Positions 35,888 through 50,448 of a DNA stretch of 64,000 nucleotides are shown here, piece after piece (within the stretch, counting starts at the first letter, position 1; each line of letters starts with the position of its first letter). The stretch lies in the NCBI GenBank assembly GCA_902500055.1, contig GCA_902500055.1_4131.1. One strand, written 5' to 3'. A program made the translations under genes and the position numbers. The stretch is from Escherichia coli (GTDB taxonomy: Bacteria; Pseudomonadota; Gammaproteobacteria; Enterobacterales; Enterobacteriaceae). The notes under the pieces were generated by a model. It was given only the letters and a program-made list of their open reading frames with translations, ran no database searches and was not told the origin of the DNA.

Positions 35888-35941
35888 GATAAAACTCCTT
35901 AATTTAGGAGGGAGAACCATTTCCCCCTCTCTATGTAAAAC

Positions 35942-35970
35942 ATTATACTTGATTCTAAGTACTATGCAAG
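35942..35970 (-). promoter_or_regulatory. conserved early-type promoter
   Basis: Minus sense CTTGCA-17 nt-TATAAT, then leader hairpin and the ATG at 35887. Confidence 0.5.
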
Positions 35971-35976
35971 TACTTT

Positions 35977-36309
35977 TTACATTTTAATACCTGGATTCAG
36001 GTAGCGGTGAGATCCATATTCTGGATCGGTTTCGGTCCAGTACTGTAAATCGATAGTACCTTTCGCGTTAATCTTGTCTACCAGCTTATTCATCTTAGCG
36101 TATACTACATCAGCATCGATGCGTTTAAAGCCAGTGGCTTTAGTGAAGTAGTAGTGATTTGCTTCACTATCATTCAGGATGTACCGAGAACCGTTTGCCG
36201 TTTGTGCGATAATGATTGAGTATTCTACGTTACGGTCGAGGCCGTCGATGAATACAGAGGAAACATTAGTACGGATGAAAGCTTTAACGATAGCGATTGA
36301 AGTAGTCAT
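35977..36309 (-). CDS. hypothetical protein
   Basis: 110 aa; AGGAG upstream. Confidence 0.55.
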   Translation of the reverse strand: MTTSIAIVKAFIRTNVSSVFIDGLDRNVEYSIIIAQTANGSRYILNDSEANHYYFTKATGFKRIDADVVYAKMNKLVDKINAKGTIDLQYWTETDPEYGSHRYLNPGIKM

Positions 36310-36363
36310 TTTGAATCTCCTAACTTTGTGGGCCGTCGCACCATTGCCGCCCTACGAGATACA

Positions 36364-36391
36364 TTATTGCAGTACTGATATACTTTGTCAA
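36364..36391 (-). promoter_or_regulatory. conserved early-type promoter
   Basis: Minus sense TTGACA-17 nt (contains CAGTACTG)-AATAAT. Confidence 0.45.
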
Positions 36392-36461
36392 TACTTTTTT
36401 TATTAATAGTTTTCACTCCACCAGCAGATAGTTACTCACCGTTATTAACTATATATTTTGG

Positions 36462-36540
36462 ATACACTTATGCACCCTGTGGGCTAGTTTTTGTCTATGC
36501 GTATATAATAGCAAAGGGACTGACCGGAGTCAATCCCTTT
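36462..36540 (+). repeat. conserved intergenic unit, copy 1
   Basis: ATACACTTATGCACCCTGTGGGCTAG ... hairpin AAAGGGACTGACCGGAGTCAATCCCTTT plus T-run; also at 39212, 42222, 45607. Confidence 0.6.
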
Positions 36541-36555
36541 TTTTATTCTTTTTTG

Positions 36556-36756
36556 TTAGATGATTCTCCAATCATCAACGATCATGGTAAGATACCGAAC
36601 CAGTGATTCGAGTGATTCGTGTTCTCGATAGTCTGCCGCACCGCCAGCGGTACAAGTACAGCCGATTAAGCCGTTTTGCAATTCCTTAATCTGTACATCG
36701 ATAAGGTTGGCTTTAGCTTCTTTCAGTACTTCAACCAGGGCGATAGCGATAGACAT
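36556..36756 (-). CDS. hypothetical protein
   Basis: 66 aa. Confidence 0.5.
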   Translation of the reverse strand: MSIAIALVEVLKEAKANLIDVQIKELQNGLIGCTCTAGGAADYREHESLESLVRYLTMIVDDWRII

Positions 36757-36778
36757 AATGTTTTACTCCAAACTATTG

Positions 36779-36839
36779 GCGGGAGAACTATTCCCCCGCT
36801 CTATGTAAAACATTATACATTACTGGTTAGTACTGTCAA
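36779..36839 (-). promoter_or_regulatory. conserved promoter plus 5' leader hairpin
   Basis: Minus sense TTGACA-N-TATAAT followed by GCGGGGGAA..TTCTCCCGC palindrome. Confidence 0.5.
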
Positions 36840-36846
36840 ATAGTTT

Positions 36847-37104
36847 TTATGAAATATCTTCGATGTAGTCGGCCCATTTCATTTTTTCAGTACTGTCAAG
36901 TGCAATCGGATTGCTAGGATCAAACCATTCACCATTCCCGCAATACATCCCCACGGCGACGGTTTTATATCCATCCTGGGCCGCACTCCACGACATTGCA
37001 CGATAGATATGGCCTTTAACTGGTTGCAGTACTGGTAACGTTTTATGGTCTTCTACGTAGGCCATAGCTTGAGGATTTACCCGATATTGTGTGAATTGAT
37101 CCAT
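36847..37104 (-). CDS. hypothetical protein
   Basis: 85 aa. Confidence 0.5.
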   Translation of the reverse strand: MDQFTQYRVNPQAMAYVEDHKTLPVLQPVKGHIYRAMSWSAAQDGYKTVAVGMYCGNGEWFDPSNPIALDSTEKMKWADYIEDIS

Positions 37105-37180
37105 TATGTTTCCCCTTGTAGTTAGTAAAGTTATTACATCAGTACTATCAAGCTATGTCAATAGTACTGAAATAAAACTT

Positions 37181-37405
37181 TTAGATTAGATTATTGAGGC
37201 CGTTGATGGTAGACTCGCTTTCTTCTTTCTCCCATTGGCGGTAGTACTTCCATGCTTCATGATATGTGGCGATTAGTTCATCTTTTTGATCCTGGTTACA
37301 TGCCAGTACTGAATCACGGTGAGCGGTGTTATAGATAGAATCGAATGATTTCTTCTCTTCTGCCAGGTTAGCTACTTCCCGCATCAGTTCATCAAAGTTA
37401 GCCAT
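37181..37405 (-). CDS. hypothetical protein
   Basis: 74 aa; AAAGGAG upstream. Confidence 0.55.
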   Translation of the reverse strand: MANFDELMREVANLAEEKKSFDSIYNTAHRDSVLACNQDQKDELIATYHEAWKYYRQWEKEESESTINGLNNLI

Positions 37406-37423
37406 TTTATTACTCCTTTTAGT

Positions 37424-37480
37424 GGGGGAGGATATCTCCCCCTATGCAAAACATTATACTTTGTTTTAGTTATTATGCAA
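37424..37480 (-). promoter_or_regulatory. conserved promoter plus 5' leader hairpin
   Basis: Minus sense TTGCAT-16 nt-TATAAT, then GGGGGAGATATCCTCCCCC palindrome. Confidence 0.5.
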
Positions 37481-37736
37481 GTACTTTTTTCATATAAACA
37501 TTAAATTCTACACCGCCGTAACCTTCCACGATGATATGTTTTGCGTTATCACGCTTGCACATAGTGAAACCGTTGTTGATATGTTCTGCATTTTCCAGGG
37601 ATACATCACCGATTGCAGCACATACGGCACTAATAACAGTATTCCGCAAAGTACTGGTATCATTAGCGGTCATAGTAGTTTGCAGTACTACGTTGTCGTA
37701 TACGTGTGCATTGATAGTGATTTCGATAGTGTTCAT
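37473..37736 (-). CDS. hypothetical protein
   Basis: Track ORF trimmed to Met19 (MNTIEITIN...); upstream part is leader hairpin read-through. Confidence 0.5.
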   Translation of the reverse strand: MNTIEITINAHVYDNVVLQTTMTANDTSTLRNTVISAVCAAIGDVSLENAEHINNGFTMCKRDNAKHIIVEGYGGVEFNVYMKKVLA

Positions 37737-37823
37737 GGTGTATCTCCTGGACTTGAGGGGAAACCATTTCCCCCTCTCGATATAAAACATTATACGTTAA
37801 TCTAACTACAATGCAAGTACTTT

Positions 37824-38015
37824 TTAAATTTTATTTCCGATATAGTCCGGCATGTTCTTTTCAGTCATACGCTTTGCTAATGTCTGCATATGGCTTATAG
37901 CGTTCAAGGTGTCTTCCTCCAGGGATGAATCAAGATAATCAGGATCATTCTTCACCTTGCAATGATTATGATAGCGTAGTACAGCCAGTACTTTTTTAAC
38001 TTCTTCAACTGTCAT
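37824..38015 (-). CDS. hypothetical protein
   Basis: 63 aa. Confidence 0.5.
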   Translation of the reverse strand: MTVEEVKKVLAVLRYHNHCKVKNDPDYLDSSLEEDTLNAISHMQTLAKRMTEKNMPDYIGNKI

Positions 38016-38284
38016 AATAAGTACCCCACTTCGTTAGCTTTCAGGTTAGTATCAATCATCAGTGGATTTTTGTAGTTCACAAAACGATTAGTTTTCTCGA
38101 TAGCGAATCCCATATAATCCAGCTTGCTTACAGTACATTCATTCTTAAAAACTTCTTTCGCTGTATCGATGGCTGATTGCATGGATAACCGCCCATCTAA
38201 ATTAATGTTTCCAAATGATCCACCAGCAGAAGTAGGATTACCGTTCATATCTTTAATGATCATAGTAGCGGAGTAGCTGGACAT
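38012..38284 (-). CDS. hypothetical protein
   Basis: 90 aa; ATGA-coupled to downstream gene. Confidence 0.5.
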   Translation of the reverse strand: MSSYSATMIIKDMNGNPTSAGGSFGNINLDGRLSMQSAIDTAKEVFKNECTVSKLDYMGFAIEKTNRFVNYKNPLMIDTNLKANEVGYLL

Positions 38285-38372
38285 AATTTTGTTTCCTTTT
38301 ATTGGTGGGGGAGAACTATTCTCCCCTTGATGTAAACTATTATACAGTACTGATATACTTTGTCAAATACTT

Positions 38373-38777
38373 TTATTCGCCCATATAGATTAAGTTATCA
38401 TCGCCTACATAGGGATCGCAAACGTTGATTTCTTCGCAGTACTTCGTGAATACATCGCCATAGTGACCTAAACCACGATCCCAAAAACCAGTTCCGTGAC
38501 CTTCGCGGGTAAGGAACAGATCATGACCAGCTTGCTCATAACCGTAATCAATAAACATACCGCGAACTACTTCCAGATCATTACCGTGTTTCTCAATGAA
38601 GCGAGAACATGCAATCACCGCCGCTTGACGTGCTTCATCAGATAACTCATAATCTTCCAGGTAATCGCCGTTATCATTATGTACAGTACTGAATTGCATA
38701 GCTTCAATGTAACCAGCGACCATTGCAGCATGATTTTTATCGTTGGCGATATTCCGAGCAAGATTAGTAGTAGTCAT
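38373..38777 (-). CDS. hypothetical protein
   Basis: 134 aa; motif REGHGTGFWDRG. Confidence 0.55.
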   Translation of the reverse strand: MTTTNLARNIANDKNHAAMVAGYIEAMQFSTVHNDNGDYLEDYELSDEARQAAVIACSRFIEKHGNDLEVVRGMFIDYGYEQAGHDLFLTREGHGTGFWDRGLGHYGDVFTKYCEEINVCDPYVGDDNLIYMGE

Positions 38778-38798
38778 GATTTTATTCCTTTTAGTATC

Positions 38799-38857
38799 GG
38801 GGAGAACTATTCTCCCCTTGATGTAAACTATTATACAGTACTAAGATACTTTGTCAA
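38799..38857 (-). promoter_or_regulatory. conserved promoter plus 5' leader hairpin (archetype)
   Basis: Minus sense TTGACA-16 nt (AGTACTG)-TATAAT, GTTTACATCAA, then GGGGAGAATAGTTCTCCCC, then AAAGGAA and ATG. Confidence 0.55.
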
Positions 38858-38861
38858 ATAC

Positions 38862-39083
38862 TTAATTACGTTTAAAATGATATGTACCTTTATCATCCTG
38901 TACGCCCCATACTGATTTACCATCAACACCAGTGAAGCCGGATTGTAATTCAATATGGAAACCATTATTATCAACTACAAAAACTTTTTTATTTTCATCC
39001 CGATAACATTGATATTCTGAATCAACATTAAAGGCCGCATCATTCAGACGATTGGAAGCGTAAATGCAAGTCATTGTAGTCAT
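38862..39083 (-). CDS. hypothetical protein
   Basis: Track ORF trimmed to Met12 (MTTMTCIY...). Confidence 0.5.
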   Translation of the reverse strand: MTTMTCIYASNRLNDAAFNVDSEYQCYRDENKKVFVVDNNGFHIELQSGFTGVDGKSVWGVQDDKGTYHFKRN

Positions 39084-39211
39084 GATTTTATTCCTTAATA
39101 TACCAGGGAGAACCATTTCCCCCTCTCGATATAAAACATTATACTTGATTCTAAGTACAATGCAAGTACTTTTTAAAAAATAGTTTTCAGTACTGAATAC
39201 TTATATAATAG

Positions 39212-39295
39212 ATACACTTCCGCACCCTATGGGTCAGTGAGTTATCTCTCAATGGATATATAATAGCAAAGGGACTGACCGGAGTCAATCCCTTT
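39212..39295 (+). repeat. conserved intergenic unit, copy 2
   Basis: GATACACTTCCGCACCCTATGGGTCAG ... AAAGGGACTGACCGGAGTCAATCCCTTTTTT. Confidence 0.6.
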
Positions 39296-39306
39296 TTTAA
39301 TCTTTT

Positions 39307-39891
39307 TTATCGTGTTACCTTACTTGCTGCCACATCACGCTTTTTATAGTACTGATTCCAGATATTGCAGGTTAAACCGTAATCAAGTACTTTAATAAGG
39401 CCATTACGATCCTGGCCGATATTCTGTTTTCTGATATCTCTTATCGTTAGTGTTGATAATGTATCATCGACGTGTTGTAGTGCATCAGCAAAGCGGTGCT
39501 GGCGTTCGATTGCATTACGTTTAATATTGTACTTTAATTCATTGCACGCGTTTACGTGCTTCACACTACCTTTGCTTGCAGTACTCAACCGATCCATAAC
39601 GATAAACATATTATCAGGATCGCATAAATGCATATGCACCTTTGCAAAGTACTGTTTCAACTGAGGGCGGTCATAGTCTAAAAAATTCCATACCTTACAT
39701 TCAGTTTCATTTTGTTCTACACCCGCATCACAATTCGCGACCTTAATCACTAACCGATCATTTAAAGCGAAAACTATACGGGAAGAACCAGCACCGATGA
39801 TCTCCAGGCCAGCTAACCGACAAGCTGAAAGGATCTCTTTGTTGGTTTCCATTTCTGACAGTGTACGGATGAATTTAGTATAATTACGCAT
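39307..39891 (-). CDS. Hanks-type (eukaryotic-like) Ser/Thr protein kinase-like protein
   Basis: Trimmed to Met20 after AAGGAG; Gly loop IGAGSSRIVF, Lys in VIKV, catalytic-loop-like RDIRKQN, DYG in place of DFG. Confidence 0.55.
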   Translation of the reverse strand: MRNYTKFIRTLSEMETNKEILSACRLAGLEIIGAGSSRIVFALNDRLVIKVANCDAGVEQNETECKVWNFLDYDRPQLKQYFAKVHMHLCDPDNMFIVMDRLSTASKGSVKHVNACNELKYNIKRNAIERQHRFADALQHVDDTLSTLTIRDIRKQNIGQDRNGLIKVLDYGLTCNIWNQYYKKRDVAASKVTR

Positions 39892-39922
39892 TGCATGTTC
39901 TCCTTGAGTTAATGAAACTATA

Positions 39923-40165
39923 TTACAGTACTTTACTATCAATGGCAACTACTTTTTTAACATTAACGGCGTGGATCACTTCCTTCGTGTTTTTAGTACT
40001 GAATACTTTCGCCGCTCCTTGTTCGACCGTGATACGATAGCGACCATTAACATCAACCATATTAATAAAGTCCGGCGTGCTGAATGGTGTTGTTTTACAT
40101 TTGAGTACTGTTAACAGTTCCACCAGCGATGTAGTTTCTTTGATACGTTTTTCTAAAGTAATCAT
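39923..40165 (-). CDS. hypothetical protein
   Basis: Track ORF trimmed to Met20 (MITLEKRIK...). Confidence 0.5.
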   Translation of the reverse strand: MITLEKRIKETTSLVELLTVLKCKTTPFSTPDFINMVDVNGRYRITVEQGAAKVFSTKNTKEVIHAVNVKKVVAIDSKVL

Positions 40166-40222
40166 TTTGTTTCCCCCGTGTTGGTATGTACATATAGTAC
40201 TAAAACATTTGAGTACTGTCAA

Positions 40223-40441
40223 TTAGATAATATTATATTTCTTTAAAGATAATGCGTCTTGGGTTGGCTGATACTCGATACCGTTCCCATTATTGACTTC
40301 AACTAATAAACCTTTGTCAATTAGTTTTTTAATAGTACGATACCCCTGTTGAAAATTGGTAAAATGTGAATCATTACGAAAGGTATAACCGTGCTTAACT
40401 GCTTCATCAATAGTTTTCTTTTCGATTTTAGATAATTTCAT
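40223..40441 (-). CDS. hypothetical small protein, possible DNA-binding
   Basis: Trimmed to Met20 (MKLSKIEKK...); shares leader sequence with the upstream gene. Confidence 0.45.
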   Translation of the reverse strand: MKLSKIEKKTIDEAVKHGYTFRNDSHFTNFQQGYRTIKKLIDKGLLVEVNNGNGIEYQPTQDALSLKKYNII

Positions 40442-40494
40442 TTTGTTTCTCCCGTGTTGGTATGTGTACATAATACTAAAACAATTGAGTACTG

Positions 40495-40749
40495 TCAACG
40501 TGATATTAGTTTTATTTTCTTATTATATTGTTGGTGTTCATATAGGTTTATTTTTCCTGTGTTCTCTATTACTATTCTGTTGTTAGTGTCCACATCGATT
40601 ACACGCAGTTTCCCGTTGCTTAACTTCCTTGGTAATAGGTTACCATTAATAAACTCATTAGCAAGCTGTACGGCCTTTGTGATGATTCTCTTCGGTGCTT
40701 TATAGTGTACCCGTAAGATGTTATCTTTATATAGTTGAACCTTAATCAT
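40495..40749 (-). CDS. hypothetical protein
   Basis: 84 aa. Confidence 0.5.
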   Translation of the reverse strand: MIKVQLYKDNILRVHYKAPKRIITKAVQLANEFINGNLLPRKLSNGKLRVIDVDTNNRIVIENTGKINLYEHQQYNKKIKLISR

Positions 40750-40810
40750 TTTGTTTGTCCTATAAAAAAGGCGGGATCAGTTCCCGCCGTGTTGTTAGTA
40801 CTGCAAGTTA

Positions 40811-41206
40811 TTAGATAACCTGGCGGCGTTTACTGTATACTGTTACACGATTACCCTTACGATCATGTCGGATCTCTTTCTGGTTGCGAATCAGTTCACT
40901 TGGACGCTTAAGGTTTGCCAGGTGATCCGCGTGAGTCCATGCGGTGTGGTTTACCTGTACTTTGATATCAGAATCAGCGATAAACTCATCTTGTGCGTCA
41001 AGTATTGCCGCCAGCATATCCGCTCGTTTTAGTTCTGCTGCTGTTAGTACTGGCTCAGGTGAATTCACAATATCAGAGATTTCTTTGAACTGTACGGCCC
41101 AGCGTTGACCTTTCGGTGCTGTCGTTCCCATGTCTTTAAATGCTGCTCCTTCCTCGCGTGCAACAATACGGGCAGCTTCACGGGTAGCGTAGAATTTAGT
41201 AATCAT
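40811..41206 (-). CDS. hypothetical protein, paralog of 52866..53132
   Basis: Start set to Met4 (MITKFYATREAARIV...) by alignment with MNIKYFATREQARIA; shared ...RKGNRVTVY tail. Confidence 0.55.
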   Translation of the reverse strand: MITKFYATREAARIVAREEGAAFKDMGTTAPKGQRWAVQFKEISDIVNSPEPVLTAAELKRADMLAAILDAQDEFIADSDIKVQVNHTAWTHADHLANLKRPSELIRNQKEIRHDRKGNRVTVYSKRRQVI

Positions 41207-41301
41207 GGTATACATCCTATTAGTTGAGTTAGTACTACAAGTTAGAGTCTATTATAAAGTACTATCTGGGCAATGTCAAATAGTACTTTAAATGGATTCT
41301 A

Positions 41302-41625
41302 TTACATGTCTTTCTTACGTTTTACATCGTAGTAGCGAACTGTTATTTCTTTGTTAATCTCTTTTTCGATGCGGTGAATAACTTTTTCTTTCGGGTTGAA
41401 ACCTATAACGGTTTCTTTAATGATCTCCAAACCAGTGTATTCGCCTTGCGTACCGTAACCGTATGTAAAGGTTTCGTGTCCCAGGTCTTCCCAGCGGTCG
41501 CCAATTAACGCAGACACGTAGCAAGAGTGGTAAGTATTGCCGTTCCGATCAGTCCAGCGATTAACTTTAATGTCAAAGGAGGTTACAATTTTCAATTCCA
41601 CTTTCTGGGTAAGGATCATAGCCAT
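41302..41625 (-). CDS. hypothetical protein, paralog of 47258..47602
   Basis: 107 aa; shared YGYG and C-terminal VKRKKD. Confidence 0.55.
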   Translation of the reverse strand: MAMILTQKVELKIVTSFDIKVNRWTDRNGNTYHSCYVSALIGDRWEDLGHETFTYGYGTQGEYTGLEIIKETVIGFNPKEKVIHRIEKEINKEITVRYYDVKRKKDM

Positions 41626-41712
41626 TTTTATTTCTCTCTCTTTGTTAGGAGGGGAACCATTTCCCCGCCTTGATGTAAACTATTATACAGTACTAAGATA
41701 CTTTGTCAATAC

Positions 41713-41988
41713 TTAAGTATTGTAAATGTCGTGAATAGTGATAAAGTTTTTACGCCCGTAAACCTGTAAATCGGTATTAATGTAATGCTTATCAAGTACA
41801 TCCTCGACGCTTAAAGCCGTGTCGTGAATATCTTCGTAGAATTGAGGATCTACAATCTTGCTTAAGTCATCCGGCGTTAACTTATCGTTAAGCCATTGAA
41901 CCGCCTGGATATCTGCATCACGTTTCCATTGTTCCAGGTTAGTAGTCAGTACTTGTTCGATTTCGTTAGCTGTCAGTAGAATCCGCAT
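41713..41988 (-). CDS. hypothetical protein
   Basis: 91 aa. Confidence 0.5.
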   Translation of the reverse strand: MRILLTANEIEQVLTTNLEQWKRDADIQAVQWLNDKLTPDDLSKIVDPQFYEDIHDTALSVEDVLDKHYINTDLQVYGRKNFITIHDIYNT

Positions 41989-42008
41989 TTTAATGTTTCC
42001 TTATCAGT

Positions 42009-42150
42009 GGTTGATGTAAGTATTATACTCGTTTACTTTCTATTGTCAAACTATTTTATCAGGGGAGTTTTTCGTATGTCTTACTCCTGGACTACTTAAC
42101 GGGGTTACTTGTTTCGTTCCCCGTCCTGATGTAAAACATTATACTTGATT
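42009..42150 (-). repeat. duplicated ~140-bp leader cassette, copy 1
   Basis: Near-identical to 52141..52282; contains two tandem promoters and hairpins CGGGGAACG..CCCCG and GGAGTAAG..CTCC. Confidence 0.55.
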
Positions 42151-42221
42151 CTAAGTACAATGCAAGTACTTTTTAAAAATAGTTTTCAGTACTTGATAGT
42201 ACTAGCCACCAGCAAACAATA

Positions 42222-42301
42222 GATACATTTATGCACCCGGTGGGCTAATTTGTTTCTATGCGTATATAATAGCAAAGGGACTGACCGGAGTCAATCCCTT
42301 T
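42222..42301 (+). repeat. conserved intergenic unit, copy 3
   Basis: GATACATTTATGCACCCGGTGGGCTAA ... AAAGGGACTGACCGGAGTCAATCCCTTTTT. Confidence 0.6.
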
Positions 42302-42312
42302 TTCAATTATTT

Positions 42313-42462
42313 TTAAACTTCTTTCGGGTTGCGATAGGTGATAGCGTTCGGGTACATTTGTTTAATGTTATTCCATGCCTGGTTAACATTATAACCACTT
42401 GAGCGAATCAGTTGGTTACTACCGACACCTTGAAACACTACTTCAAATAAGAATTCTTTCAT
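42313..42462 (-). CDS. small hypothetical protein (49 aa)
   Basis: Hand-translated MKEFLFEVVFQGVGSNQ...; ATGA-coupled to upstream gene. Confidence 0.35.
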   Translation of the reverse strand: MKEFLFEVVFQGVGSNQLIRSSGYNVNQAWNNIKQMYPNAITYRNPKEV

Positions 42463-42632
42463 GCTTTCACCTCGCTATCTGCTTTGCCTTTACGCCAGGC
42501 CGTTGCTAATTGTTCGCGTTGCCATAAGTCGAGTGATACGTAAAGTTTTGCATTATCACCCTTCGGATATTCGCCAGTAGTACCAATCCGATAAAACAGA
42601 TCTTTCAGTACTGTTAATTCTACCTGGACCAT
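42459..42632 (-). CDS. small hypothetical protein
   Basis: Track ORF trimmed to Met35 (MVQVELTVLKDLF...) downstream of the leader hairpin. Confidence 0.45.
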   Translation of the reverse strand: MVQVELTVLKDLFYRIGTTGEYPKGDNAKLYVSLDLWQREQLATAWRKGKADSEVKA

Positions 42633-42718
42633 TATACTTTCCTCTTTGTTAGGAGGGGAACTATTCCCCTTCCGATATAAAACATTATACACTTTATTCA
42701 GTACAGTGCAAGTACTTT

Positions 42719-42931
42719 TTAATCTTTCAGCCAATGATCCTGAATGAATTTTTCACCGAAACCTTGCTGCATTGATTGTAACAGACGTTCGCGATGAGCG
42801 GCGGCGAATTGCTCAGTACTATGCGTTACACCTGGTTGATATCTGGATTCACCATTGGGGGCGATGTATTGTACATCCCACGGTTTTTCGTTAGTATCAG
42901 ACCATTTACGAACGATTAGTTGACCTTGCAT
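42719..42931 (-). CDS. hypothetical protein
   Basis: 70 aa. Confidence 0.5.
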   Translation of the reverse strand: MQGQLIVRKWSDTNEKPWDVQYIAPNGESRYQPGVTHSTEQFAAAHRERLLQSMQQGFGEKFIQDHWLKD

Positions 42932-43017
42932 TTTTCTTTCCTCTTAGTGGGGAGAATCATTTTCTCCCCTTCATGTAACTTATTATACAGTACTATAATC
43001 TATTGTCCAGTACTTTT

Positions 43018-43206
43018 TTACAGTTTATGAATTAATTCTTTATCTAAGCGATAGCGTACATTATTAATGGTAACAGCATTATTTTTAATGCTACGCTGTA
43101 CGGGTCCACCAGCAATAACAAACGTTGCTTTATTGCCCCGAACAATGATAGCACTTCCAGGATTACCGAAATCATCTTGTACTAAAATACTTGATAAGTT
43201 TTCCAT
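43018..43206 (-). CDS. hypothetical protein
   Basis: 62 aa. Confidence 0.5.
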   Translation of the reverse strand: MENLSSILVQDDFGNPGSAIIVRGNKATFVIAGGPVQRSIKNNAVTINNVRYRLDKELIHKL

Positions 43207-43284
43207 TTTTATTTCCTCTTAGTAGGGGAAGATGTTTCCCCTTGATGCAAGTACTATAACAGTACTGAAAACTAAATGCAAGTA

Positions 43285-43641
43285 CTATGATAAAATCATG
43301 ATAGGATATTCACTATCTATCAATACCTCGAATCCGAAACCTTCGTACCATTCTTTAAGATTAAAGGCGTTATCTTCTCCCGTATCGCATTCTAAGATGA
43401 TACAATCTGAATCATCGGCGGCATCGATAAAGGCATTCATTAATTCGTTACCTTCACCATTGCCCCGACTATCAGGATCAACATAAAGAGAATCAATAAA
43501 CGCTACACGGTCATAATCAAGATCCGGTGCAATGATTCCACGTTTAACAAACCAGTACTGCAATTGTGCTACTTTGCCCTGTACCTGATAACCAGTGATC
43601 TCTCCATTGTCAGTAGTACGCGTGATATGTTGTATTCCCAT
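43285..43641 (-). CDS. GNAT-family N-acetyltransferase-like protein
   Basis: 118 aa; acetyl-CoA motif-A-like IDSLYVDPDSRGNGEGNELMNAFIDAA. Confidence 0.5.
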   Translation of the reverse strand: MGIQHITRTTDNGEITGYQVQGKVAQLQYWFVKRGIIAPDLDYDRVAFIDSLYVDPDSRGNGEGNELMNAFIDAADDSDCIILECDTGEDNAFNLKEWYEGFGFEVLIDSEYPIMILS

Positions 43642-43705
43642 GATTACTATCCTCAGTTAAGATATAAAACATTATACACTATCTTTCAGTACTGTCAATT
43701 ACTTT

Positions 43706-43963
43706 TTATCTCATAGATCTATGCCAACAATTACGCGGTTGACGTTTAAAAATACTATCATGATCCTCCTGGCAAGTTATGCAGTACTTACACCCCTTAA
43801 CGACCTGGCGGCGATTCTCAGGGATTTTATCGCCGCAGTCGAGGCAATGTATCAGTGATTCTATTTGTGCGTTAATTTGCGTTCTAGCGTGGTTAACAGC
43901 AGCCTGAATCACTGCGTTAATCTCGTCTTGTTCGGCCCCATCTTTCGCGAATCCTACAGCCAT
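43706..43963 (-). CDS. TraR/DksA-type C4 zinc-finger protein
   Basis: 85 aa; CLDCGDKIPENRRQVVKGCKYCITC (CxxC...CxxC). Confidence 0.5.
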   Translation of the reverse strand: MAVGFAKDGAEQDEINAVIQAAVNHARTQINAQIESLIHCLDCGDKIPENRRQVVKGCKYCITCQEDHDSIFKRQPRNCWHRSMR

Positions 43964-44164
43964 TATTTTAACCTCATTATAAAAATACTATAGTACTGTA
44001 ATGCGACAATAATATTACTTGTTCTTACTTTTTCCAATCCACATGATACCACATATTCATTACCATATGTGCGGAACGATACACCATGAAAATTTTTATA
44101 CACTTGCACTACTAATCATAACCTTTCGTCTAACCAACTGCATAGAATTATACTACTTTACGCA

Positions 44165-44205
44165 AATTGATCAAGTATTGATCAGATCATTTTTGATCAA
44201 TATTA
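44165..44205 (-). promoter_or_regulatory. cluster of TTGATCA palindromes (4 GATC sites in ~40 bp) in a leader
   Basis: AAATTGATCAAGTATTGATCAGATCATTTTTGATCAATATT. Confidence 0.4.
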
Positions 44206-44293
44206 TACAGTTACATTTGTGCACCCTATGGGTTAGTGACGTTCTCGTCTTGATGTAAGTATTATGCCAGTACTGGATGATATTGTCAATAGA

Positions 44294-44491
44294 TTATTTT
44301 AATTTTTTTCTGTCATTGATTAATGCTTTCAGTACTATACTAATGATTTGCAATGATTCATCAATGACTATAAAATTATTTTCTTTCATTAGATGATAGT
44401 TACCATTGATTGTATATTCTAAGGAGTACTGTTTACGTTTAATTTTTGATAATGTTTCTATTTGTTTTTGTACTGATTTCATGCTAATCAT
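44294..44491 (-). CDS. hypothetical protein
   Basis: 65 aa. Confidence 0.45.
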   Translation of the reverse strand: MISMKSVQKQIETLSKIKRKQYSLEYTINGNYHLMKENNFIVIDESLQIISIVLKALINDRKKLK

Positions 44492-44596
44492 TGGTAAACG
44501 TCCTGTAACGCATTCTAACGAGATAAACGGTTGAGTACTGGCATTGTATAGGGTAATGAATTAAAGCCCACCAGCGTTAACCAGTGGGCTATAATC

Positions 44597-44740
44597 TTAC
44601 ATCTTGCGGATAATCTTAACAGTATCTTTCACCGATTTACCGTTTTGCTGACATTGCTCGATCATCGCGTATTGTTCTGCGGTCAGATCCTCGCCAGTTT
44701 TTGCCAGTACTGCGTCGATGAATGAATCCAGTGCGATCAT
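44597..44740 (-). CDS. small hypothetical protein (47 aa)
   Basis: Hand-translated MIALDSFIDAVLAKTGEDLTAEQ...; promoter and leader upstream. Confidence 0.35.
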   Translation of the reverse strand: MIALDSFIDAVLAKTGEDLTAEQYAMIEQCQQNGKSVKDTVKIIRKM

Positions 44741-44832
44741 TTTGTTTCTCTCTCTTAGGTTAAGTTAACTACTGTTTATAAAACTTATTATACAGTACTA
44801 TCAAACGTTGTCAATAGTACTGGTAATATATT

Positions 44833-45045
44833 TTAATTGATGATGGTTAATGTAAAGTTATAATCCCCTGCCTGGTATAGTACTTTATCGCCGAACGTGC
44901 CGACACGTTTCATATTGCAATAGATACCCATAACACTTTTTACATCTTTGATATTCCGAACGCCCGTAATATCCTTGTTTAAATGATCGTGATCAGAAAA
45001 TAAAACTTGTTTTGCATTTTTCAGTACAGTGCAGATATTAGCCAT
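44833..45045 (-). CDS. hypothetical protein
   Basis: 70 aa. Confidence 0.5.
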   Translation of the reverse strand: MANICTVLKNAKQVLFSDHDHLNKDITGVRNIKDVKSVMGIYCNMKRVGTFGDKVLYQAGDYNFTLTIIN

Positions 45046-45141
45046 TTTGTTTTCTCTCTCTGTTAGTGGGGAGAAGTTTTTCTCCCCTTGATGTAAACTA
45101 TTATACAGTACTATAATCTATTGTCAAACTATTTTTTTATA

Positions 45142-45483
45142 TTATTCGAAATCTTCTGGACCGGACTGATAATCATCTTCACCGTATGCACTTTCTAACT
45201 TCTCGCCAGTGTGATCATCAGTTAGTGAATCATCCTCATAATTCACGTCTACGCCTACAATGTAAAACTGGCTATCGTCTGGATCATTGAAATTAATTTT
45301 CTGAATGTTTACAATAACTGTATTGATGCCCAGGACACAGCCATCAGCCGTTACAAAGTACTGATATTTTTCACAACCGCCTGAATTGAAACCGTAATTA
45401 ATTTCGGCCCGACCATCATTTAAACGCAGTGCCTGGGCGATGATTTCATTTTCAAAGTTAGATTGAGCAATTGAGATAGTCAT
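45142..45483 (-). CDS. hypothetical protein with acidic C-terminus
   Basis: 113 aa; C-terminal ...ESAYGEDDYQSGPEDFE. Confidence 0.5.
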   Translation of the reverse strand: MTISIAQSNFENEIIAQALRLNDGRAEINYGFNSGGCEKYQYFVTADGCVLGINTVIVNIQKINFNDPDDSQFYIVGVDVNYEDDSLTDDHTGEKLESAYGEDDYQSGPEDFE

Positions 45484-45606
45484 GATTTGTTTCCTTATTA
45501 CCAGGGGAAACCGTTTCCCCTTTCGATGTAAAACATTATACGCTTATTGAGATAGTTTGCAAGTACTTTTTAAAAATAGTTTTCAGTACTCAATACTTAT
45601 ATAATA

Positions 45607-45692
45607 GATACACTTATGCACCCGGTGGGCTAGTGAGCTATCTCTCAATGAATATATAATAGCAAAATGGCTGACCGAAGTCAACCACTTTT
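45607..45692 (+). repeat. conserved intergenic unit, copy 4 (degenerate hairpin)
   Basis: GATACACTTATGCACCCGGTGGGCTAGTGAG ... AAAATGGCTGACCGAAGTCAACCACTTTTTT. Confidence 0.55.
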
Positions 45693-45697
45693 TTCAT

Positions 45698-45832
45698 TTA
45701 TTTTTTAGCTTTCAGTACTGCCGCCTTTCGCGTCATGCCTTGCTTAATGTACTCCTTTACTTTCGCTTTACGTGCTTTCGCTTTATCTGCTTTCGTTTTA
45801 GGAGTACTGTAAATTAAACCGTTAGGATTCAT
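45698..45832 (-). CDS. small basic protein (44 aa)
   Basis: Hand-translated MNPNGLIYSTPKTKADKAKARKAK...; TAAATG junction with upstream peptide. Confidence 0.35.
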   Translation of the reverse strand: MNPNGLIYSTPKTKADKAKARKAKVKEYIKQGMTRKAAVLKAKK

Positions 45833-45922
45833 TTAAATCACCATAAAGAATAGATAGGTTACTAACAATGCCGCGATCAATGCACCGATCACCGCTGAAC
45901 TGTAATAAGCTAATGATTTCAT
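45833..45922 (-). CDS. small hydrophobic peptide (29 aa), probable single TM helix
   Basis: Hand-translated MKSLAYYSSAVIGALIAALLVTYLFFMVI; ATGA-coupled to upstream gene. Confidence 0.35.
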   Translation of the reverse strand: MKSLAYYSSAVIGALIAALLVTYLFFMVI

Positions 45923-46071
45923 TTTTTAGCCTGAAAATAATGTTTAATTTGAGCGGCGGTCAGTGCACAATTACGCAGGAAGTTTTCTGTATAACTTTTG
46001 CGAGTACTGAAAGAGAATTGACCTTTGCCGTTACCGATAGTAACATCAAACCGAGCGTTGTATTGTTTCAT
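45919..46071 (-). CDS. small hypothetical protein (50 aa)
   Basis: Track ORF trimmed to Met11 (MKQYNARFDVTIGNGKGQ...). Confidence 0.4.
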   Translation of the reverse strand: MKQYNARFDVTIGNGKGQFSFSTRKSYTENFLRNCALTAAQIKHYFQAKK

Positions 46072-46152
46072 TTTGTTTCTCCTGTTATTGGGGAGAATCA
46101 TTTCTCCCCTTCATGTAAACTATTATACAGTACTAAAAACTAATTGCAAGTA

Positions 46153-46299
46153 CTATTTTTTAGATTTACGCAAACTTTCTACCATCTCAGGAGTAAGGCC
46201 CGGCGGGTAGGAAACTACTTCATCAACGAAACGTAAAGGGAATACCCCAGCGAAAGGTGAACGTGCTTTCTTAGTATTACTCTTTTTTGATGCTTTCAT
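46153..46299 (-). CDS. small basic protein (48 aa)
   Basis: Hand-translated MKASKKSNTKKARSPFAGVF...; leader hairpin GGGGAGAATCATTTCTCCCC upstream. Confidence 0.4.
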   Translation of the reverse strand: MKASKKSNTKKARSPFAGVFPLRFVDEVVSYPPGLTPEMVESLRKSKK

Positions 46300-46368
46300 T
46301 TCATATTCCTTAATTAGTGGGGAGAATCATTTCTCCCCTTCATGTAAAACATTATACGCGTTTAAAAA

Positions 46369-46578
46369 CTAATTGCAAGTACTATTTGAAAGTAAATGCT
46401 CATACGCTGCATTAACTACGTTTTCAATAACCGACTGTACAGAAAGATCCCCCACGTCCTGGCTATAGTAGAAATCGCTTACAGTGGTGTCATCGTATGC
46501 AAATACTTTACCAGGTACGGCATCAATCACATACATATTAACCTTTAAGATGTCGATCTTATCCTGTACAGTAAGCAT
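46369..46578 (-). CDS. hypothetical protein
   Basis: 69 aa. Confidence 0.5.
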   Translation of the reverse strand: MLTVQDKIDILKVNMYVIDAVPGKVFAYDDTTVSDFYYSQDVGDLSVQSVIENVVNAAYEHLLSNSTCN

Positions 46579-46583
46579 ATTAA

Positions 46584-46856
46584 TTAACCTTTTAAGTACT
46601 GGCTTAAGTAGTCTTGTTGATCTTCGGTGATTGCAGCCATCTTCCCTAGTACTGGATTGATGATATAATCCCCTGTAACGTCCTGTAACGCATTCTCAGG
46701 CGGTTTAACGGCTGGGGTAGCCATAGCCATTGCCTGGACTTGTTCGACGCTGTAACGCTCATATAGGCGGCATTCTTCCGGTGTTAACATAGCATCAGTA
46801 CGCTTCATCGGTTTAATGATGCTTTCGATCTCATTCAGTACTTGATTAACGTTCAT
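46584..46856 (-). CDS. hypothetical protein
   Basis: 90 aa. Confidence 0.5.
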   Translation of the reverse strand: MNVNQVLNEIESIIKPMKRTDAMLTPEECRLYERYSVEQVQAMAMATPAVKPPENALQDVTGDYIINPVLGKMAAITEDQQDYLSQYLKG

Positions 46857-46907
46857 GGTATAATCCCCAATATAAGCGGCCTGAATCGACCGCTAACGAT
46901 GTTTTGA

Positions 46908-47177
46908 TTAATAGGTGTATGGTTGACGCTCAAACAATGATTGCACGTTGTACGCCCCGCTTATGGGCTTCGCTGGTAAATCAATTTTATATTGTTCACG
47001 CTTAAAGATAATAAAACGGCAATTGTTTTTAACATCAAAATTGATTGAACGTTCCAGGAGTTTACCATCGTGCACAAATACAAGATAACCGCTTGGTACT
47101 TGTTTTGTAGTACTGGTTGCAACCATAGACCGCCGAACATGTGTACCTGCATCGATTAAAGTACTGATATTTTTCAT
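46908..47177 (-). CDS. hypothetical protein
   Basis: 89 aa. Confidence 0.5.
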   Translation of the reverse strand: MKNISTLIDAGTHVRRSMVATSTTKQVPSGYLVFVHDGKLLERSINFDVKNNCRFIIFKREQYKIDLPAKPISGAYNVQSLFERQPYTY

Positions 47178-47257
47178 TATACGATCCTCTTAAGTTAATT
47201 TAATTTCTTTCCCCTATGCAGACACTATATCAAAGTATCTGCATAAAGTAAAGCTAA

Positions 47258-47602
47258 TTAAAGATCTTTTTTGCGTTTAACATCAGTTACCGAACTGTAA
47301 ACAGTGATATTATTGTCACGGCAAAAACGGGAAAGATAAGAACCGCGTAAAAACTCTTTATCTTCCATATTAATAACCTTGCTAAATTCTTCCATTGCTA
47401 CAGTGTCAAAGTGATCCCCGTATCCATATTGGAACGGCACGTTTACTACTTCAATAAAATTACCATCAATTTCTACGTCTACACTTAAAGAGAAATAAGT
47501 GTTACCATATGAAGCCTGGAACCAACGCCGAGCGGCAATATGTACAACTTCAACAGAAGACAGGTTGATATTTTGTTTTGCGATAGTGTTGATATTAGCC
47601 AT
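47258..47602 (-). CDS. hypothetical protein, paralog of 41302..41625
   Basis: 114 aa; shared YGYG and VKRKKD tail. Confidence 0.55.
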   Translation of the reverse strand: MANINTIAKQNINLSSVEVVHIAARRWFQASYGNTYFSLSVDVEIDGNFIEVVNVPFQYGYGDHFDTVAMEEFSKVINMEDKEFLRGSYLSRFCRDNNITVYSSVTDVKRKKDL

Positions 47603-47683
47603 TTTAATTTCCTCTTAGTTGTCTTGATAAAATCTATTATGCCAGTACTATCAAACTATGTCAATAGTACTGTGATAATATTT

Positions 47684-47896
47684 TTACTTACTTTCTTTCG
47701 CTGCTTTGTGCGTTGCCACTGCCATAACCACATCAGCACGAACAAAGTTTTTTACCGTGTCAGTGTAGTAATTGATTGCATCGTCAACATCTGTAAAAAT
47801 CCGATACATGCCGCACCACGATACTTTATAACCTTCTTTCACTTCTTCCAGCTTAACCAGTGATTTGTTTACTTTGATTTTTGTGATGATAGCCAT
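47684..47896 (-). CDS. hypothetical protein
   Basis: 70 aa; promoter TTGACA-17-CATAAT upstream, duplicated at 47620 and 47920. Confidence 0.5.
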   Translation of the reverse strand: MAIITKIKVNKSLVKLEEVKEGYKVSWCGMYRIFTDVDDAINYYTDTVKNFVRADVVMAVATHKAAKESK

Positions 47897-47980
47897 TATT
47901 GTTTCCTCTTAGTTGTCTTGATAAAATCTATTATGCCAGTACTATCAAACTATGTCAATAGTACTGTGATAATATTTTTA

Positions 47981-48121
47981 CTTACTTTTTGCTTTCTTTG
48001 CTGCTTCCACCTGGTCGGCCCACTCTTTACCCCATACCTGAGCGTTATAGTGATACTGACAAAGAGCAACGCCCCGCTTTAAACCAGTAATAGATTTCTG
48101 ACCACATTGACAAGTTTTCAT
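47981..48121 (-). CDS. small Cys-containing protein (46 aa), possible zinc ribbon
   Basis: Hand-translated MKTCQCGQKSITGLKRGVALCQYHY...; leader hairpin upstream. Confidence 0.35.
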
Positions 48122-48207
48122 TTTAGTTTCCTTGTAGTGGGGAGAACCATTTTCTCCCCTTGATGTAATGTATTATACTTTATTCGATTTACTTTGCAAG
48201 TACTTTT

Positions 48208-48435
48208 TTAATTTAATTCATCAAGGCAAAGGATACGCTCAACGCCCAAATCAGTTAAACTAATCGACGGCACTTGATAGGTTTCAATGTATGCTACACT
48301 TGCCCACTGACCGAACTCATTAACGGCCCAGGTATTCATTGCATTTTGCAATTCCGCACCTTCCTTGTTGGTAATGACTGCAACTACTTGTTCGTTGCCA
48401 GTAGTACCAGATACGCGAGTAATGATAATAGCCAT
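48208..48435 (-). CDS. hypothetical protein
   Basis: Track ORF trimmed to Met20 (MAIIITRVSG...). Confidence 0.5.
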   Translation of the reverse strand: MAIIITRVSGTTGNEQVVAVITNKEGAELQNAMNTWAVNEFGQWASVAYIETYQVPSISLTDLGVERILCLDELN

Positions 48436-48549
48436 TGTTTTGATTCCTTTGATTTGGAAGGAGAACCGTTTCCCCCTCTCGATGTAAAACATTATACGCT
48501 AATCTCTTAATCGTGCAAGTACTTTTTATTACTTTTTGCAAAATACTTT

Positions 48550-48650
48550 AAACGCACTCAATCGCATTCTAACGACTTTAACGCCACCAGCTAGGGCAAT
48601 GCATCAGATAAACAGTTTAATACGTTAGAATCGTTTCTAGGCGGTGCTGG
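48550..48650 (-). other. interleaved inverted repeats (A-B-A'-B')
   Basis: CGCATTCTAACG ... GCCACCAGC ... CGTTAGAATCG ... GCTGGTGGC. Confidence 0.4.
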
Positions 48651-48672
48651 TGGCCTGGTAAACGATAAACAC

Positions 48673-48698
48673 AAAAAAGCCCACTGTATAAGTGGGCT
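48673..48698 (-). terminator. intrinsic terminator after 48720..49202
   Basis: Hairpin AGCCCACTTATACAGTGGGCT followed by T-run on minus sense. Confidence 0.55.
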
Positions 48699-48719
48699 AA
48701 TGATTCAGTACTTTAATTG

Positions 48720-49202
48720 TTATGCTTCAACTTTGCGATGAGCTTCGATCCATTCCTCGCGAGTCATACCACTGGAGTTAATCGCATCCAGTACTACCGC
48801 AATGCAGTTACCACGCACCGGAATCAGATATTCTTCCCCGTTATCAAGTACTACCGCTACACGTTCTTGAATCCATTTTTTAGCTTTTACTTCTGGCTTA
48901 TCTTCACCGTACTTTTTCGCCAGGGCTTTTTGTGCCATCTCTGTAACTACTTCCAGATCCAATCCAACTACTGCCGCCTGAATACTTTCAATTGTTGCTT
49001 GTAGTTCTGCTTCACGGGCCGCCTTTGCCGCTTCAATTTCTGCCGCTTTATTTGCTTGTAGTTCTTTCGCAGTACTGTAAGCGATGTTAAAATTATTGCG
49101 TACCGCTTTCATGGTATCGTTATCCAGTTCAGCCAGGATCTCAGCCGCGACGTTAGTTTCATTTGCTACCAGTGCTTTGATGAATGATTTTACATTAGCC
49201 AT
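48720..49202 (-). CDS. Ala/Glu-rich coiled-coil protein, hypothetical
   Basis: Trimmed to Met6 (MANVKSF...) after GAGGA; central KAAEIEAAKAAREAELQATIESIQAA. Confidence 0.5.
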   Translation of the reverse strand: MANVKSFIKALVANETNVAAEILAELDNDTMKAVRNNFNIAYSTAKELQANKAAEIEAAKAAREAELQATIESIQAAVVGLDLEVVTEMAQKALAKKYGEDKPEVKAKKWIQERVAVVLDNGEEYLIPVRGNCIAVVLDAINSSGMTREEWIEAHRKVEA

Positions 49203-49408: not shown

Positions 49409-49430
49409 AAAAAAGCCCACCAGGTGGGCT
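49409..49430 (-). terminator. intrinsic terminator after 49437..49667
   Basis: Hairpin AGCCCACCTGGTGGGCT followed by T-run on minus sense. Confidence 0.5.
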
Positions 49431-50447: not shown

Positions 50448-50448
50448 T

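Follow-up and report, generated by a model that had tools for sequence, protein, structure and literature searches.

We describe a compact RNA element, carried in the early leaders of an Escherichia coli jumbo phage, that also occurs in the A1 transcript of T7. It lies in a 64,000-nucleotide (nt) stretch of DNA filed under E. coli (GenBank assembly GCA_902500055.1, contig GCA_902500055.1_4131.1), here called the window, which on its phage matches is the terminal-repeat region of an Asteriusvirus, a jumbo coliphage of the 121Q type. In two near-identical leaders of this window a non-coding segment of 73-75 nt stands between two tandem promoters, and a third, diverged copy lies between them. By comparison with its homologues, the element is shown to be a member of a conserved, horizontally exchanged RNA motif present in at least five groups of virulent enterobacterial phages, the carriers being T7-like podoviruses, 121Q-like and Munch-like jumbo myoviruses, and rV5-like and phi92-like myoviruses. 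We define it as the early-leader UAAGUAG/ACGAAAAA RNA motif, with T7 nt 536-593 as type example. On balance, we infer that it is a structured early-leader RNA, exchanged horizontally and read by a host factor, possibly RNA polymerase itself.

A composite leader in two near-identical copies

A preliminary description of this DNA had pointed to a leader of about 140 base pairs (bp), duplicated in front of two unrelated genes, with two tandem promoters and internal hairpins in each copy, and all of this is borne out. Aligned with each other, as that description had proposed, 42009-42150 (copy A) and 52141-52282 (copy B) agree in 131 of 144 columns (91%, with one 2-nt indel), and the element proper in 77 of 83 (93%). 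The local similarity extends to 42004-42201 against 52135-52334 (176/200, 88%) and is broken by a non-homologous spacer between the -35 and -10 hexamers of the upstream promoter. Both promoters are present in both copies, on the minus strand; RNAfold predicts the two hairpins that had been named, and additionally a closing helix, AUCAGG/CCUGAU. The long conserved leaders are non-coding, and the genes behind them belong to phrog_14947 and phrog_5162, which give no BLASTP alignment with each other.

On the minus strand the order of parts in each copy is an upstream promoter, a two-hairpin segment of ~75 nt, a TTGACA-16-TATAAT promoter, a Shine-Dalgarno (SD) sequence and an ATG. The features, including the open reading frames (ORFs) with their lengths in amino acids (aa), are:

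42274..42301, strand unassigned: 12-bp hairpin AAAGGGATTGACTCCGGTCAGTCCCTTT in the boundary module upstream of the first promoter of copy A (terminator scan)
42138..42165, minus strand: upstream promoter of copy A, TTGCAT-16-TATAAT, -35 at 42165-42160 and -10 at 42143-42138 (sequence, cassette mapping)
42058..42130, minus strand: element A, 73-nt non-coding structured RNA (RNAfold, covariance model, motif match, covarying homologues)
42022..42049, minus strand: downstream promoter of copy A, TTGACA-16-TATAAT, 12/12 consensus (promoter scan)
41713..41988, minus strand: 91-aa ORF served by both promoters of copy A, phrog_14947, function unknown (PHROG match)
52271..52298, minus strand: upstream promoter of copy B, TTGTAA-16-TATAAT, -10 at 52276-52271 (promoter scan, cassette mapping)
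52189..52263, minus strand: element B, 75 nt (motif match, RNAfold, covariance model)
52153..52180, minus strand: downstream promoter of copy B, TTGACA-16-TATAAT, 12/12 consensus (promoter scan)
51512..52120, minus strand: 202-aa ORF downstream of copy B, phrog_5162, function unknown (PHROG match, BLASTP)

The two copies are shown by this layout to be composites, in which an ordinary early sigma70-type cassette promoter is joined to a non-coding segment of 73-75 nt and then to a second consensus promoter with its SD and ORF. All four promoters are members of a family of canonical early cassettes described below. The upstream promoter of copy A, preceded by the A-rich stretch AAAAAGTAC, has the architecture of the 23 canonical cassettes, and its transcripts would start about 7 nt past the -10; the second promoter, in copy A as in copy B, is without the 5' hairpin of those cassettes.

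An attenuator, in which premature termination or SD masking controls the downstream gene, had been offered as one explanation. The leader is long and structured, and when the whole leader of copy B is folded, the minimum free energy (MFE) structure has GUAGCCC paired to GGGUUAC of the SD region. However, none of the helices runs into a U-tract, the terminator scan detects nothing terminator-like within either copy, and no alternative pairing is conserved between them. SD sequestration by the long leader is predicted in copy B only, where it is weak and of low ensemble frequency, and it is not conserved in copy A. The genes downstream of the element differ in every phage lineage, no Rfam riboswitch matches, and the gene would be expressed regardless of the leader because a second consensus promoter stands between element and SD. 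We regard an attenuator or riboswitch as scarcely credible, while riboregulator-like control by the leader, also raised in the preliminary description, is possible. A leader peptide was considered and rejected: there is no ATG, and in the homologous leader of Justusliebigvirus muut an extra C disrupts the candidate ACG/ATA frames.

One fold and a third copy

A single three-helix fold is predicted by RNAfold for elements A and B and for the corresponding segments of Justusliebigvirus muut and Vequintavirinae phage A7_1 (-19 to -23 kcal/mol, z -1.5 to -3.0; element A alone, -21 kcal/mol, z = -2.96). Its closing helix, P1 (AUCAGG/CCUGAU), uses the first nucleotides of the predicted transcript, and in all myovirus copies the element begins ~1-6 nt past the predicted transcription start. 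P2 is the ACGGGG...CCCCGU hairpin and is followed by an unpaired UAAGUAG. P3 begins 4-6 nt past UAAGUAG and generally consists of a 4-5-bp stem with a 14-17-nt loop, UAAG-N4-ACGAAAAA; in A and B the stem is GGAGU/ACUCC around 14 nt, AAG-N4-ACGAAAA. The parts of the three elements of the window are placed as follows:

42130-42125 / 42063-42058, minus strand: element A, P1, AUCAGG/CCUGAU (RNAfold)
42124-42099, minus strand: element A, P2 hairpin (RNAfold)
42098-42092, minus strand: element A, single-stranded UAAGUAG (RNAfold)
42087-42064, minus strand: element A, P3, GGAGU/ACUCC with loop AAGACAUACGAAAA (RNAfold)
52263-52258 / 52194-52189, minus strand: element B, P1 (RNAfold)
52257-52230, minus strand: element B, P2 (RNAfold)
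52229-52223, minus strand: element B, UAAGUAG (RNAfold)
52218-52195, minus strand: element B, P3 (RNAfold)
49326..49353, minus strand: promoter of copy C, TTGACA-16-TAGAAT, -10 at 49331 (promoter scan)
49246..49318, minus strand: element C, diverged, without P2 (motif match, RNAfold, covariance model)
49318-49314 / 49250-49246, minus strand: element C, outer helix, AUCAA/UUGAU (RNAfold)
49313-49310 / 49263-49260, minus strand: element C, inner helix, GACG/CGUC (RNAfold)
49301-49295 and 49290-49267, minus strand: element C, UAAGUAG and P3 (CCAGU/ACUGG) (RNAfold, motif match)

Copy C (~49246-49353) had not been seen in the preliminary description. The 19-base core motif has three exact matches in the window, at 42066-42098, 52197-52229 and 49269-49301, against 0.00 expected, and a covariance model of the core picks out the same three in the 64 kb and no others (61.6 bits for A, 58.8 for B and 53.2 for C), the next score being 9.7. 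The promoter of copy C directly follows the intrinsic terminator 49430-49414, and its element forms the 5' untranslated region (UTR) of a 160-aa ORF (48720-49202) with no consensus promoter in between. Each of the three is non-coding and lies in sense orientation directly 3' of a sigma70-type early promoter. A and B are closed by AUCAGG/CCUGAU, and C by two helices, GACG/CGUC and AUCAA/UUGAU; the P3 of C is a double compensatory change with respect to GGAGU/ACUCC of A and B. Variants of element C occur in 121Q, EJP2, LTH01 and Hallingskeid.

Distribution among phages

How much of the leader is shared varies from phage to phage. Justusliebigvirus muut, a phage of 146 kb, has 493 nt in common with the window (93.8%; 2501-2992 of locus L002 against window 42144-41652), comprising the element, the downstream promoter, the 91-aa gene and the next promoter, and this block indicates recent gene exchange between very different coliphages via common promoter cassettes. 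In EmilieFrey only the 132-nt leader is common (85.6%), before a different gene. In A7_1 only 86 nt, those of the element, are common (90.8%), and they lie between that phage's own, differing promoters, TTGACA...GTTAAGAT. From these three cases the element is the minimal unit in common; as far as can be read from the alignments, it is the transcribed element of ~75 nt, and not the promoters, that is the unit conserved across phage lineages. Further diverged versions stand behind early promoters of the jumbo phages Munch and Hallingskeid, Vequintavirinae LTH01, 121Q and EJP2, with the helices CGGC/GCCG, GGGAUG/CAUUCC, GACGG/CCGUC, AUCAA/UUGAU and CUUG/CAAG. Loop variants among the sequences retrieved by BLAST (ACGAACAA, AUGAAAAA, AAGAAAAA and ACGAAAGA) are only one or two bases apart. 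Copies A and C and those of A7_1 and LTH01 directly follow terminators and therefore head transcription units; for copy A the start of the unit is marked by the hairpin 42274..42301, which is terminator-like on both strands.

T7 was reached through weak blastn matches to T7-like phages and then through Klebsiella phage Pkp-1. In the T7 genome (NC_001604) the motif occupies nt 536-593, between A1 and A2, within the A1 transcript and just before the -35 of A2, and reads CCGG-GGUCAA-CCGG-A-UAAGUAG-ACA-GCCUG-AUAAGUCGCACGAAAAA-CAGGU-A-UUGAC; the T7 record has no annotated feature there. A blastn search with this segment returns 489 phage records, with one place in each, which span the Studiervirinae, Slopekvirinae and Melnykvirinae and whose hosts are Escherichia, Klebsiella, Salmonella, Yersinia, Enterobacter, Citrobacter, Shigella, Serratia and Cronobacter. 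T7 shares with the window a hairpin, UAAGUAG, a 4-5-bp stem with the loop (A)UAAG-N4-ACGAAAAA and a closing helix, and its motif is likewise placed between a strong early promoter and the promoter that follows. The T7-like phages differ in carrying one copy per genome where the window has three, in closing the structure with a pseudoknot, for which the P2 loop pairs with nucleotides 3' of P3 (often those of the A2 -35), and in that their element is not at the 5' end and begins ~40 nt into the transcript, behind another hairpin.

This last difference bears on the idea that the element stabilises or processes a 5' end, P1 replacing the canonical cassette hairpin and guarding early mRNA from decay dependent on RppH or RNase E. 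Stem-loops at the 5' terminus are known to stabilise E. coli mRNAs, as in the ompA leader, and the likeness is real: P1 pairs nucleotides within ~1-6 nt of the predicted start in all myovirus copies, the canonical cassettes have a simple hairpin at that place, and the promoter that follows the element is without one. Against such a role, transcripts from that second promoter would be unprotected, the T7-like element lies some way in and behind another hairpin, and the invariant loop sequences and specific three-helix fold exceed what end protection needs. We hold a stabiliser to be unlikely.

Among metagenomic viruses (IMG/VR), no match was obtained when the search pattern prescribed P3 in its myovirus form, and a pattern without stem positions gave 28 contigs, 26 of them T7-sized; two of the 28 loci, L020 and L032, look like AT-rich chance matches. 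The same kind of pattern scan over 185,579 bacterial and archaeal genomes (596 Gb) gave 19 scattered hits in unrelated metagenome-assembled genomes, about the chance number for 19 fixed bases. Only L043, a T7-like contig, combines P3 pairing with T7-type sequence; the five pairs of L039 apparently arise by chance. A bacterial counterpart is absent on this evidence, since the genome hits other than the T7-like one are at chance level, and blastn of 5,426 E. coli genomes found no similar sequence, short complementarity being beyond that search.

Covariation of the stems

The helices of the T7-type element were assessed on 18 distinct sequences, in which three helices comprise 15 pairs. Of the alignment cells, 93.3% are paired, against 13-34% for slid partners, and nine of the 15 pairs change on both sides, a number reached by none of 500 shuffles. 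The pseudoknot helix, with five of its six pairs changing on both sides, takes the forms GUCAA/UUGAC, GUCGGU/ACCGAC, GUCAUC/GAUGAC and GAUUAG/CUAAUC, and UCAAC/GUUGA in Cronosvirus. We read the T7-type fold as an H-type pseudoknot with P3 inserted in its third loop. Across all types P3 varies among GGAG/CUCC, CCAG/CUGG, CCUG/CAGG and CUUG/CAAG (93.8% paired, four of five pairs changing on both sides), and its three central pairs are always paired in all lineages while switching among CG, GC, UA and AU. The P1 of the myovirus copies varies likewise (AUCAGG/CCUGAU, CGGC/GCCG, GACGG/CCGUC, AUCAA/UUGAU). This covariation is not built in, because the stems were absent from the retrieval pattern. 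G-U pairs occupy 11 cells of the T7-type set and A-C one, and wherever the element occurs it stands behind a promoter and in the sense direction; the excess of G-U over A-C and the fixed orientation both favour a constraint on RNA over one on DNA.

These data also bear on the notion of a DNA-level feature or a scar, that is, an "empty" cassette after loss of its ORF, a protein-binding site, or an UP element or inverted repeat serving the downstream promoter. Cassette-wise indels by recombination between near-identical promoter units do occur, copies A and B contain an SD-like CCAGGAG without a start codon, and in the T7-like phages the 3' strand of the pseudoknot coincides with the A2 -35 while the A-rich loop sits where an UP element would. 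A scar, however, would not be expected to keep 85-93% identity across Asteriusvirus, Justusliebigvirus and Vequintavirinae, or to show compensatory changes in 489 T7-like records; and in other lineages the SD-like sequence becomes CCAG or CCUG with its pairing kept. The distance from the motif to the next -35 ranges from ~2 to ~50 nt, which rules out reading ACGAAAAA as an UP element, and the G-U pairs and strict orientation point to RNA. A DNA-level explanation is, in our view, highly improbable.

Comparison with known RNA classes

Searched against Rfam 15, the window has no match at gathering score, the region around copy A has only chance-level matches (E 1-3), and at permissive E-values nothing falls on the elements of T7, Pkp-1, A7_1 or muut. 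ARAGORN finds no tRNA or tmRNA gene in the window. Resemblances noticed by eye to a hammerhead-like CUGAUxA...GAAA and to words of the 16S 3' end (GGGGAAC, AACAAGUAAC) are not conserved among A, B and muut and have no Rfam support. The nut sites of lambda and the leaders of rrn operons, with their boxA and boxB, are likewise promoter-proximal RNA signals, those of lambda in early phage transcripts, and the GAAAAA end of the P3 loop is reminiscent of a boxB loop. The P3 loop, in contrast, is 14-17 nt long and not a pentaloop; boxA gives four two-mismatch matches in the window against 3.6 expected, none near the element; and we know of no N protein in phages that carry it.

Full-text literature searches with the motif strings returned only papers that print the T7 A1 template sequence, and the searched literature, which did not extend to older subscription articles on the T7 left end, holds no description of an element between A1 and A2. 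The RNA motif to which the element belongs, and of which part of the T7 A1 leader is also a member, is apparently undescribed.

The early promoter-hairpin cassettes

The promoters of the composite leaders belong to a family of 23 or more units on the minus strand, spread over 35.9-55.3 kb of the window:

35897..53975, minus strand: array of 23 canonical early cassettes (sequence mapping and folding)

A canonical cassette opens with an A-rich/AGTAC stretch and continues with a -35, 16 nt of spacer, TATAAT, (G/A)TTTACATC(G/A)AG, a G/C hairpin, SD and ATG, with a short ORF as payload. The hairpin, of 7-9 bp and -10 to -19.6 kcal/mol, lies 8-12 nt 3' of the -10 and has no U-tract; the ATG follows ~53-62 nt past the -10, and the next -35 usually comes directly after the preceding stop codon. 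On the 23 hairpins the RNAalifold consensus is weak, at -4.35 kcal/mol, owing to shifted stem registers in the MAFFT alignment, and the single-sequence folds are the better evidence. The initial transcribed sequence of T7 A1, AUCGAGAGGG, with its hairpin (locus L007 199-230, T7 nt 498-529), closely resembles the starts of these cassettes, where the counterpart is (A)CAUCGAGAGGGGG followed by the hairpin, for example at 48496-48446; this suggests a common design, or common ancestry, of early promoter-leader units across unrelated coliphages.

The family recalls the promoter-early stem-loop (PeSL) cassettes of T4-type phages (Arbiol 2010, PMC2839356; Comeau 2014, PMC4122927). In both, a strong sigma70-like early promoter with an AT-rich upstream stretch is repeated, together with a G/C stem-loop and an SD, in units of ~100 bp beside small ORFans, and these units serve as homologous-recombination sites that add or remove single genes. 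In Asteriusvirus phage vB_Ec-M-J one whole unit (promoter, hairpin and 60-aa ORF) is extra with respect to the window and is flanked by two near-identical cassette copies of ~90 bp where the window has a single one, which, on this comparison of two genomes, is the signature of homologous recombination between cassettes. The upstream promoters of copies A and B have spacers borrowed from different cassettes. Unlike a PeSL stem-loop, which stands upstream of the promoter and terminates incoming transcription (PMC2839356), the hairpin of the window cassettes lies downstream of the -10, in the 5' UTR and without a U-tract; the phage, moreover, is an Asteriusvirus and not of the T4 type. The PeSL concept accounts for the promoters on either side of the element and not for the conserved element between them. 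The suggestion of a transposed promoter module, also made in the preliminary description, holds in part, because the cassettes recombine as PeSLs do: the leader is modular and mobile and its promoters belong to a recombining family, but the promoters are not the conserved unit.

A strong intrinsic terminator at 40788-40770 (minus strand), GGCGGGAACTGATCCCGCC plus T6, stands directly before the SD of ORF 40495..40749, an attenuator-like placement within the early gene array.

Genomic setting of the window

The phage matches to 2.5 kb around the element are 49 records of 88-97% identity, and the matches listed are all Asteriusvirus jumbo coliphages of ~350 kb (121Q, PBECO4, UE-S1, vB_Ec-M-J). 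In the vB_Ec-M-J record the counterpart stretch falls within an annotated direct terminal repeat of 21.5 kb, dense with short hypothetical genes on one strand. By the coordinates of that record the physical genome end would lie near ~56 kb of the window, and minus-strand transcription would run inward from it. Close to this presumed end is a non-coding stretch of ~1 kb (54200-55300, especially 54749-54900) in which 8-bp repeats stand in tandem (GGCTAGAC / GGCTAAAC / GGATGGCT) and either strand has promoters; the stretch may be a terminus, packaging or origin region.

Several further repeats were noted. For the hexamer AGTACT the base composition predicts ~21.5 copies in the window, where 272 are present, and CAGTACTG is found 65 times; this motif flanks the -35 and -10 of early cassettes (AAAAAGTACTTGCA ... 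CAGTACTGTATAAT, for example at 42146-42200 and 50817-50871), is abundant elsewhere too, and may be bound or modified by a phage factor. GCACCC-N3-GGGYNA has eight exact copies (36472, 39222, 42233, 44221, 45618 and 52452 on the plus strand, 50473 and 52392 on the minus strand) against 0.01 expected, all in non-coding spacers at the boundaries of minus-strand transcription units, and Salmonella phage Munch has the similar GCACCCCGUGGGCUA. A plus-strand unit of ~90 nt is repeated at 36461-36553, 39216-39308, 42222-42314 and ~45607-45700; it consists of a TATAAT-like box, GATACAC..GCACCC-N3-GGG, the 12-bp hairpin AAAGGGACTGACCGGAGTCAATCCCTTT and a T-run, has a compensated variant at 45.6 kb, lies in its 42222-42314 copy directly upstream of the copy A promoter, and has the look of a gene for a small plus-strand RNA, of a terminator acting in both directions, or of both. 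Paralogous gene families are found at 60359-63761, with four plus-strand copies that share TATAATGAATAAAGGAGGAAATATGTTACCTTTTGT starts, and at 16853-18836, with five repeats spaced ~450 bp (16.8-18.8 kb).

Discussion

The ordinary part of these leaders is the tandem cassette promoters, PeSL-like in a rearranged layout; what is not ordinary is the element of ~75 nt between them. How might it work? As mechanism we tentatively prefer action in cis on the elongating host polymerase or its Rho/Nus environment, by analogy with the put RNAs of phage HK022. Those RNAs act in cis, and their target is the zinc-binding domain of the beta' subunit of RNA polymerase. They are ~70 nt long, form two stem-loops just 3' of an early promoter, act independently of the downstream gene, and bind the transcribing polymerase, suppressing pausing and termination (PMC9378689). 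The element, a multi-helix RNA of 73-75 nt directly 3' of an early promoter, resembles putL and putR in size, in promoter-proximal position and in its indifference to the gene that follows, and its invariant unpaired nucleotides would correspond to those essential in put. In contrast, put consists of two long stem-loops with a triplex, whereas the element is a junction or pseudoknot with a loop of 14-17 nt.

We envisage that the element would act at the RNA level and in the sense direction, forming the 5' domain of the longer transcript isoform, with its invariant unpaired nucleotides forming a recognition surface for a conserved host component. In a put-like action in cis, the nascent RNA would bind the host RNA polymerase that is transcribing it, or the Nus/Rho environment of that polymerase, and polymerases from the first promoter of the unit would become less prone to pausing and termination across an early region dense in promoters and terminators; intrinsic terminators do lie downstream of the elements, at 50549-50527, 49430-49414, 48698-48678 and 40788-40770. 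The second promoter would supply unmodified polymerases and an mRNA with a short leader.

A number of points weigh against this reading, or against parts of it. There is no sequence similarity to put, HK022 and lambdoid phages are absent among the blastn hits of the element, and the analogy draws on where the RNAs lie, how long they are and their indifference to the gene that follows. In T7 the element would be confined to transcripts from A1, and those from A2 and A3 cross the same operon. In the T7 record OL964750 (37,455 bp) the match to the query stops after its first 26 nt, which suggests that the element can be lost in the laboratory. Transcription start sites are throughout those predicted from promoter consensus. 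The conservation of the loops is partly by construction, the retrieval pattern for many of the sequences having fixed them. And the topology of P1 differs by lineage, a nested three-way junction in the myovirus copies and a pseudoknot in the T7-like phages, so that the claim of one family is carried by the UAAGUAG-P3 core.

The element could also act in trans. Once made or processed, the abundant early RNA would bind and titrate some protein conserved in enterobacteria, for instance a chaperone of RNA, a ribonuclease, a toxin or a sensor of a defence system, or would base-pair with an RNA of the host. With a promoter to itself and no ORF, the element amounts to a small-RNA cassette, laid out as the protein cassettes are, with promoter and payload and no terminator. 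Its independence of the downstream gene, the invariant unpaired motifs flanked by covarying stems, the very strong promoters, such as T7 A1, that drive it, and its horizontal spread between unrelated phages with common hosts are all as a trans-acting RNA would have them. On the other side, there is no terminator or defined 3' end at the element, we know of no discrete RNA species from it, and the host-genome search reported above found nothing similar. We consider action in trans somewhat doubtful.

Put most broadly, the element may represent a class of phage RNA that has so far escaped recognition, folded compactly as a junction or pseudoknot, with invariant loops, and acting in the first minutes of infection by reprogramming polymerase or by sequestering a host protein; we advance this as a possibility rather than a probability. 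Should polymerase reprogramming be correct, it would amount to factor-independent antitermination or anti-pausing outside the lambdoid phages, and a functional RNA would have gone unnoticed inside the T7 A1 transcription unit, a heavily used template of transcription biochemistry. The segment nt 536-593 is present, or is cut short, in many "T7 A1" templates and reporter fragments, which makes the matter a practical one, and it is directly testable in T7, where genetics and in vitro A1 transcription are routine. The promoter-hairpin cassettes, for their part, extend PeSL-type modular gene shuffling to jumbo phages, with the parts arranged differently. If functional, the element would be a new RNA family, absent from Rfam 15 and common to T7 and to jumbo coliphages that are candidates for therapy, and it would point to a common step of early infection that depends on a conserved host component.

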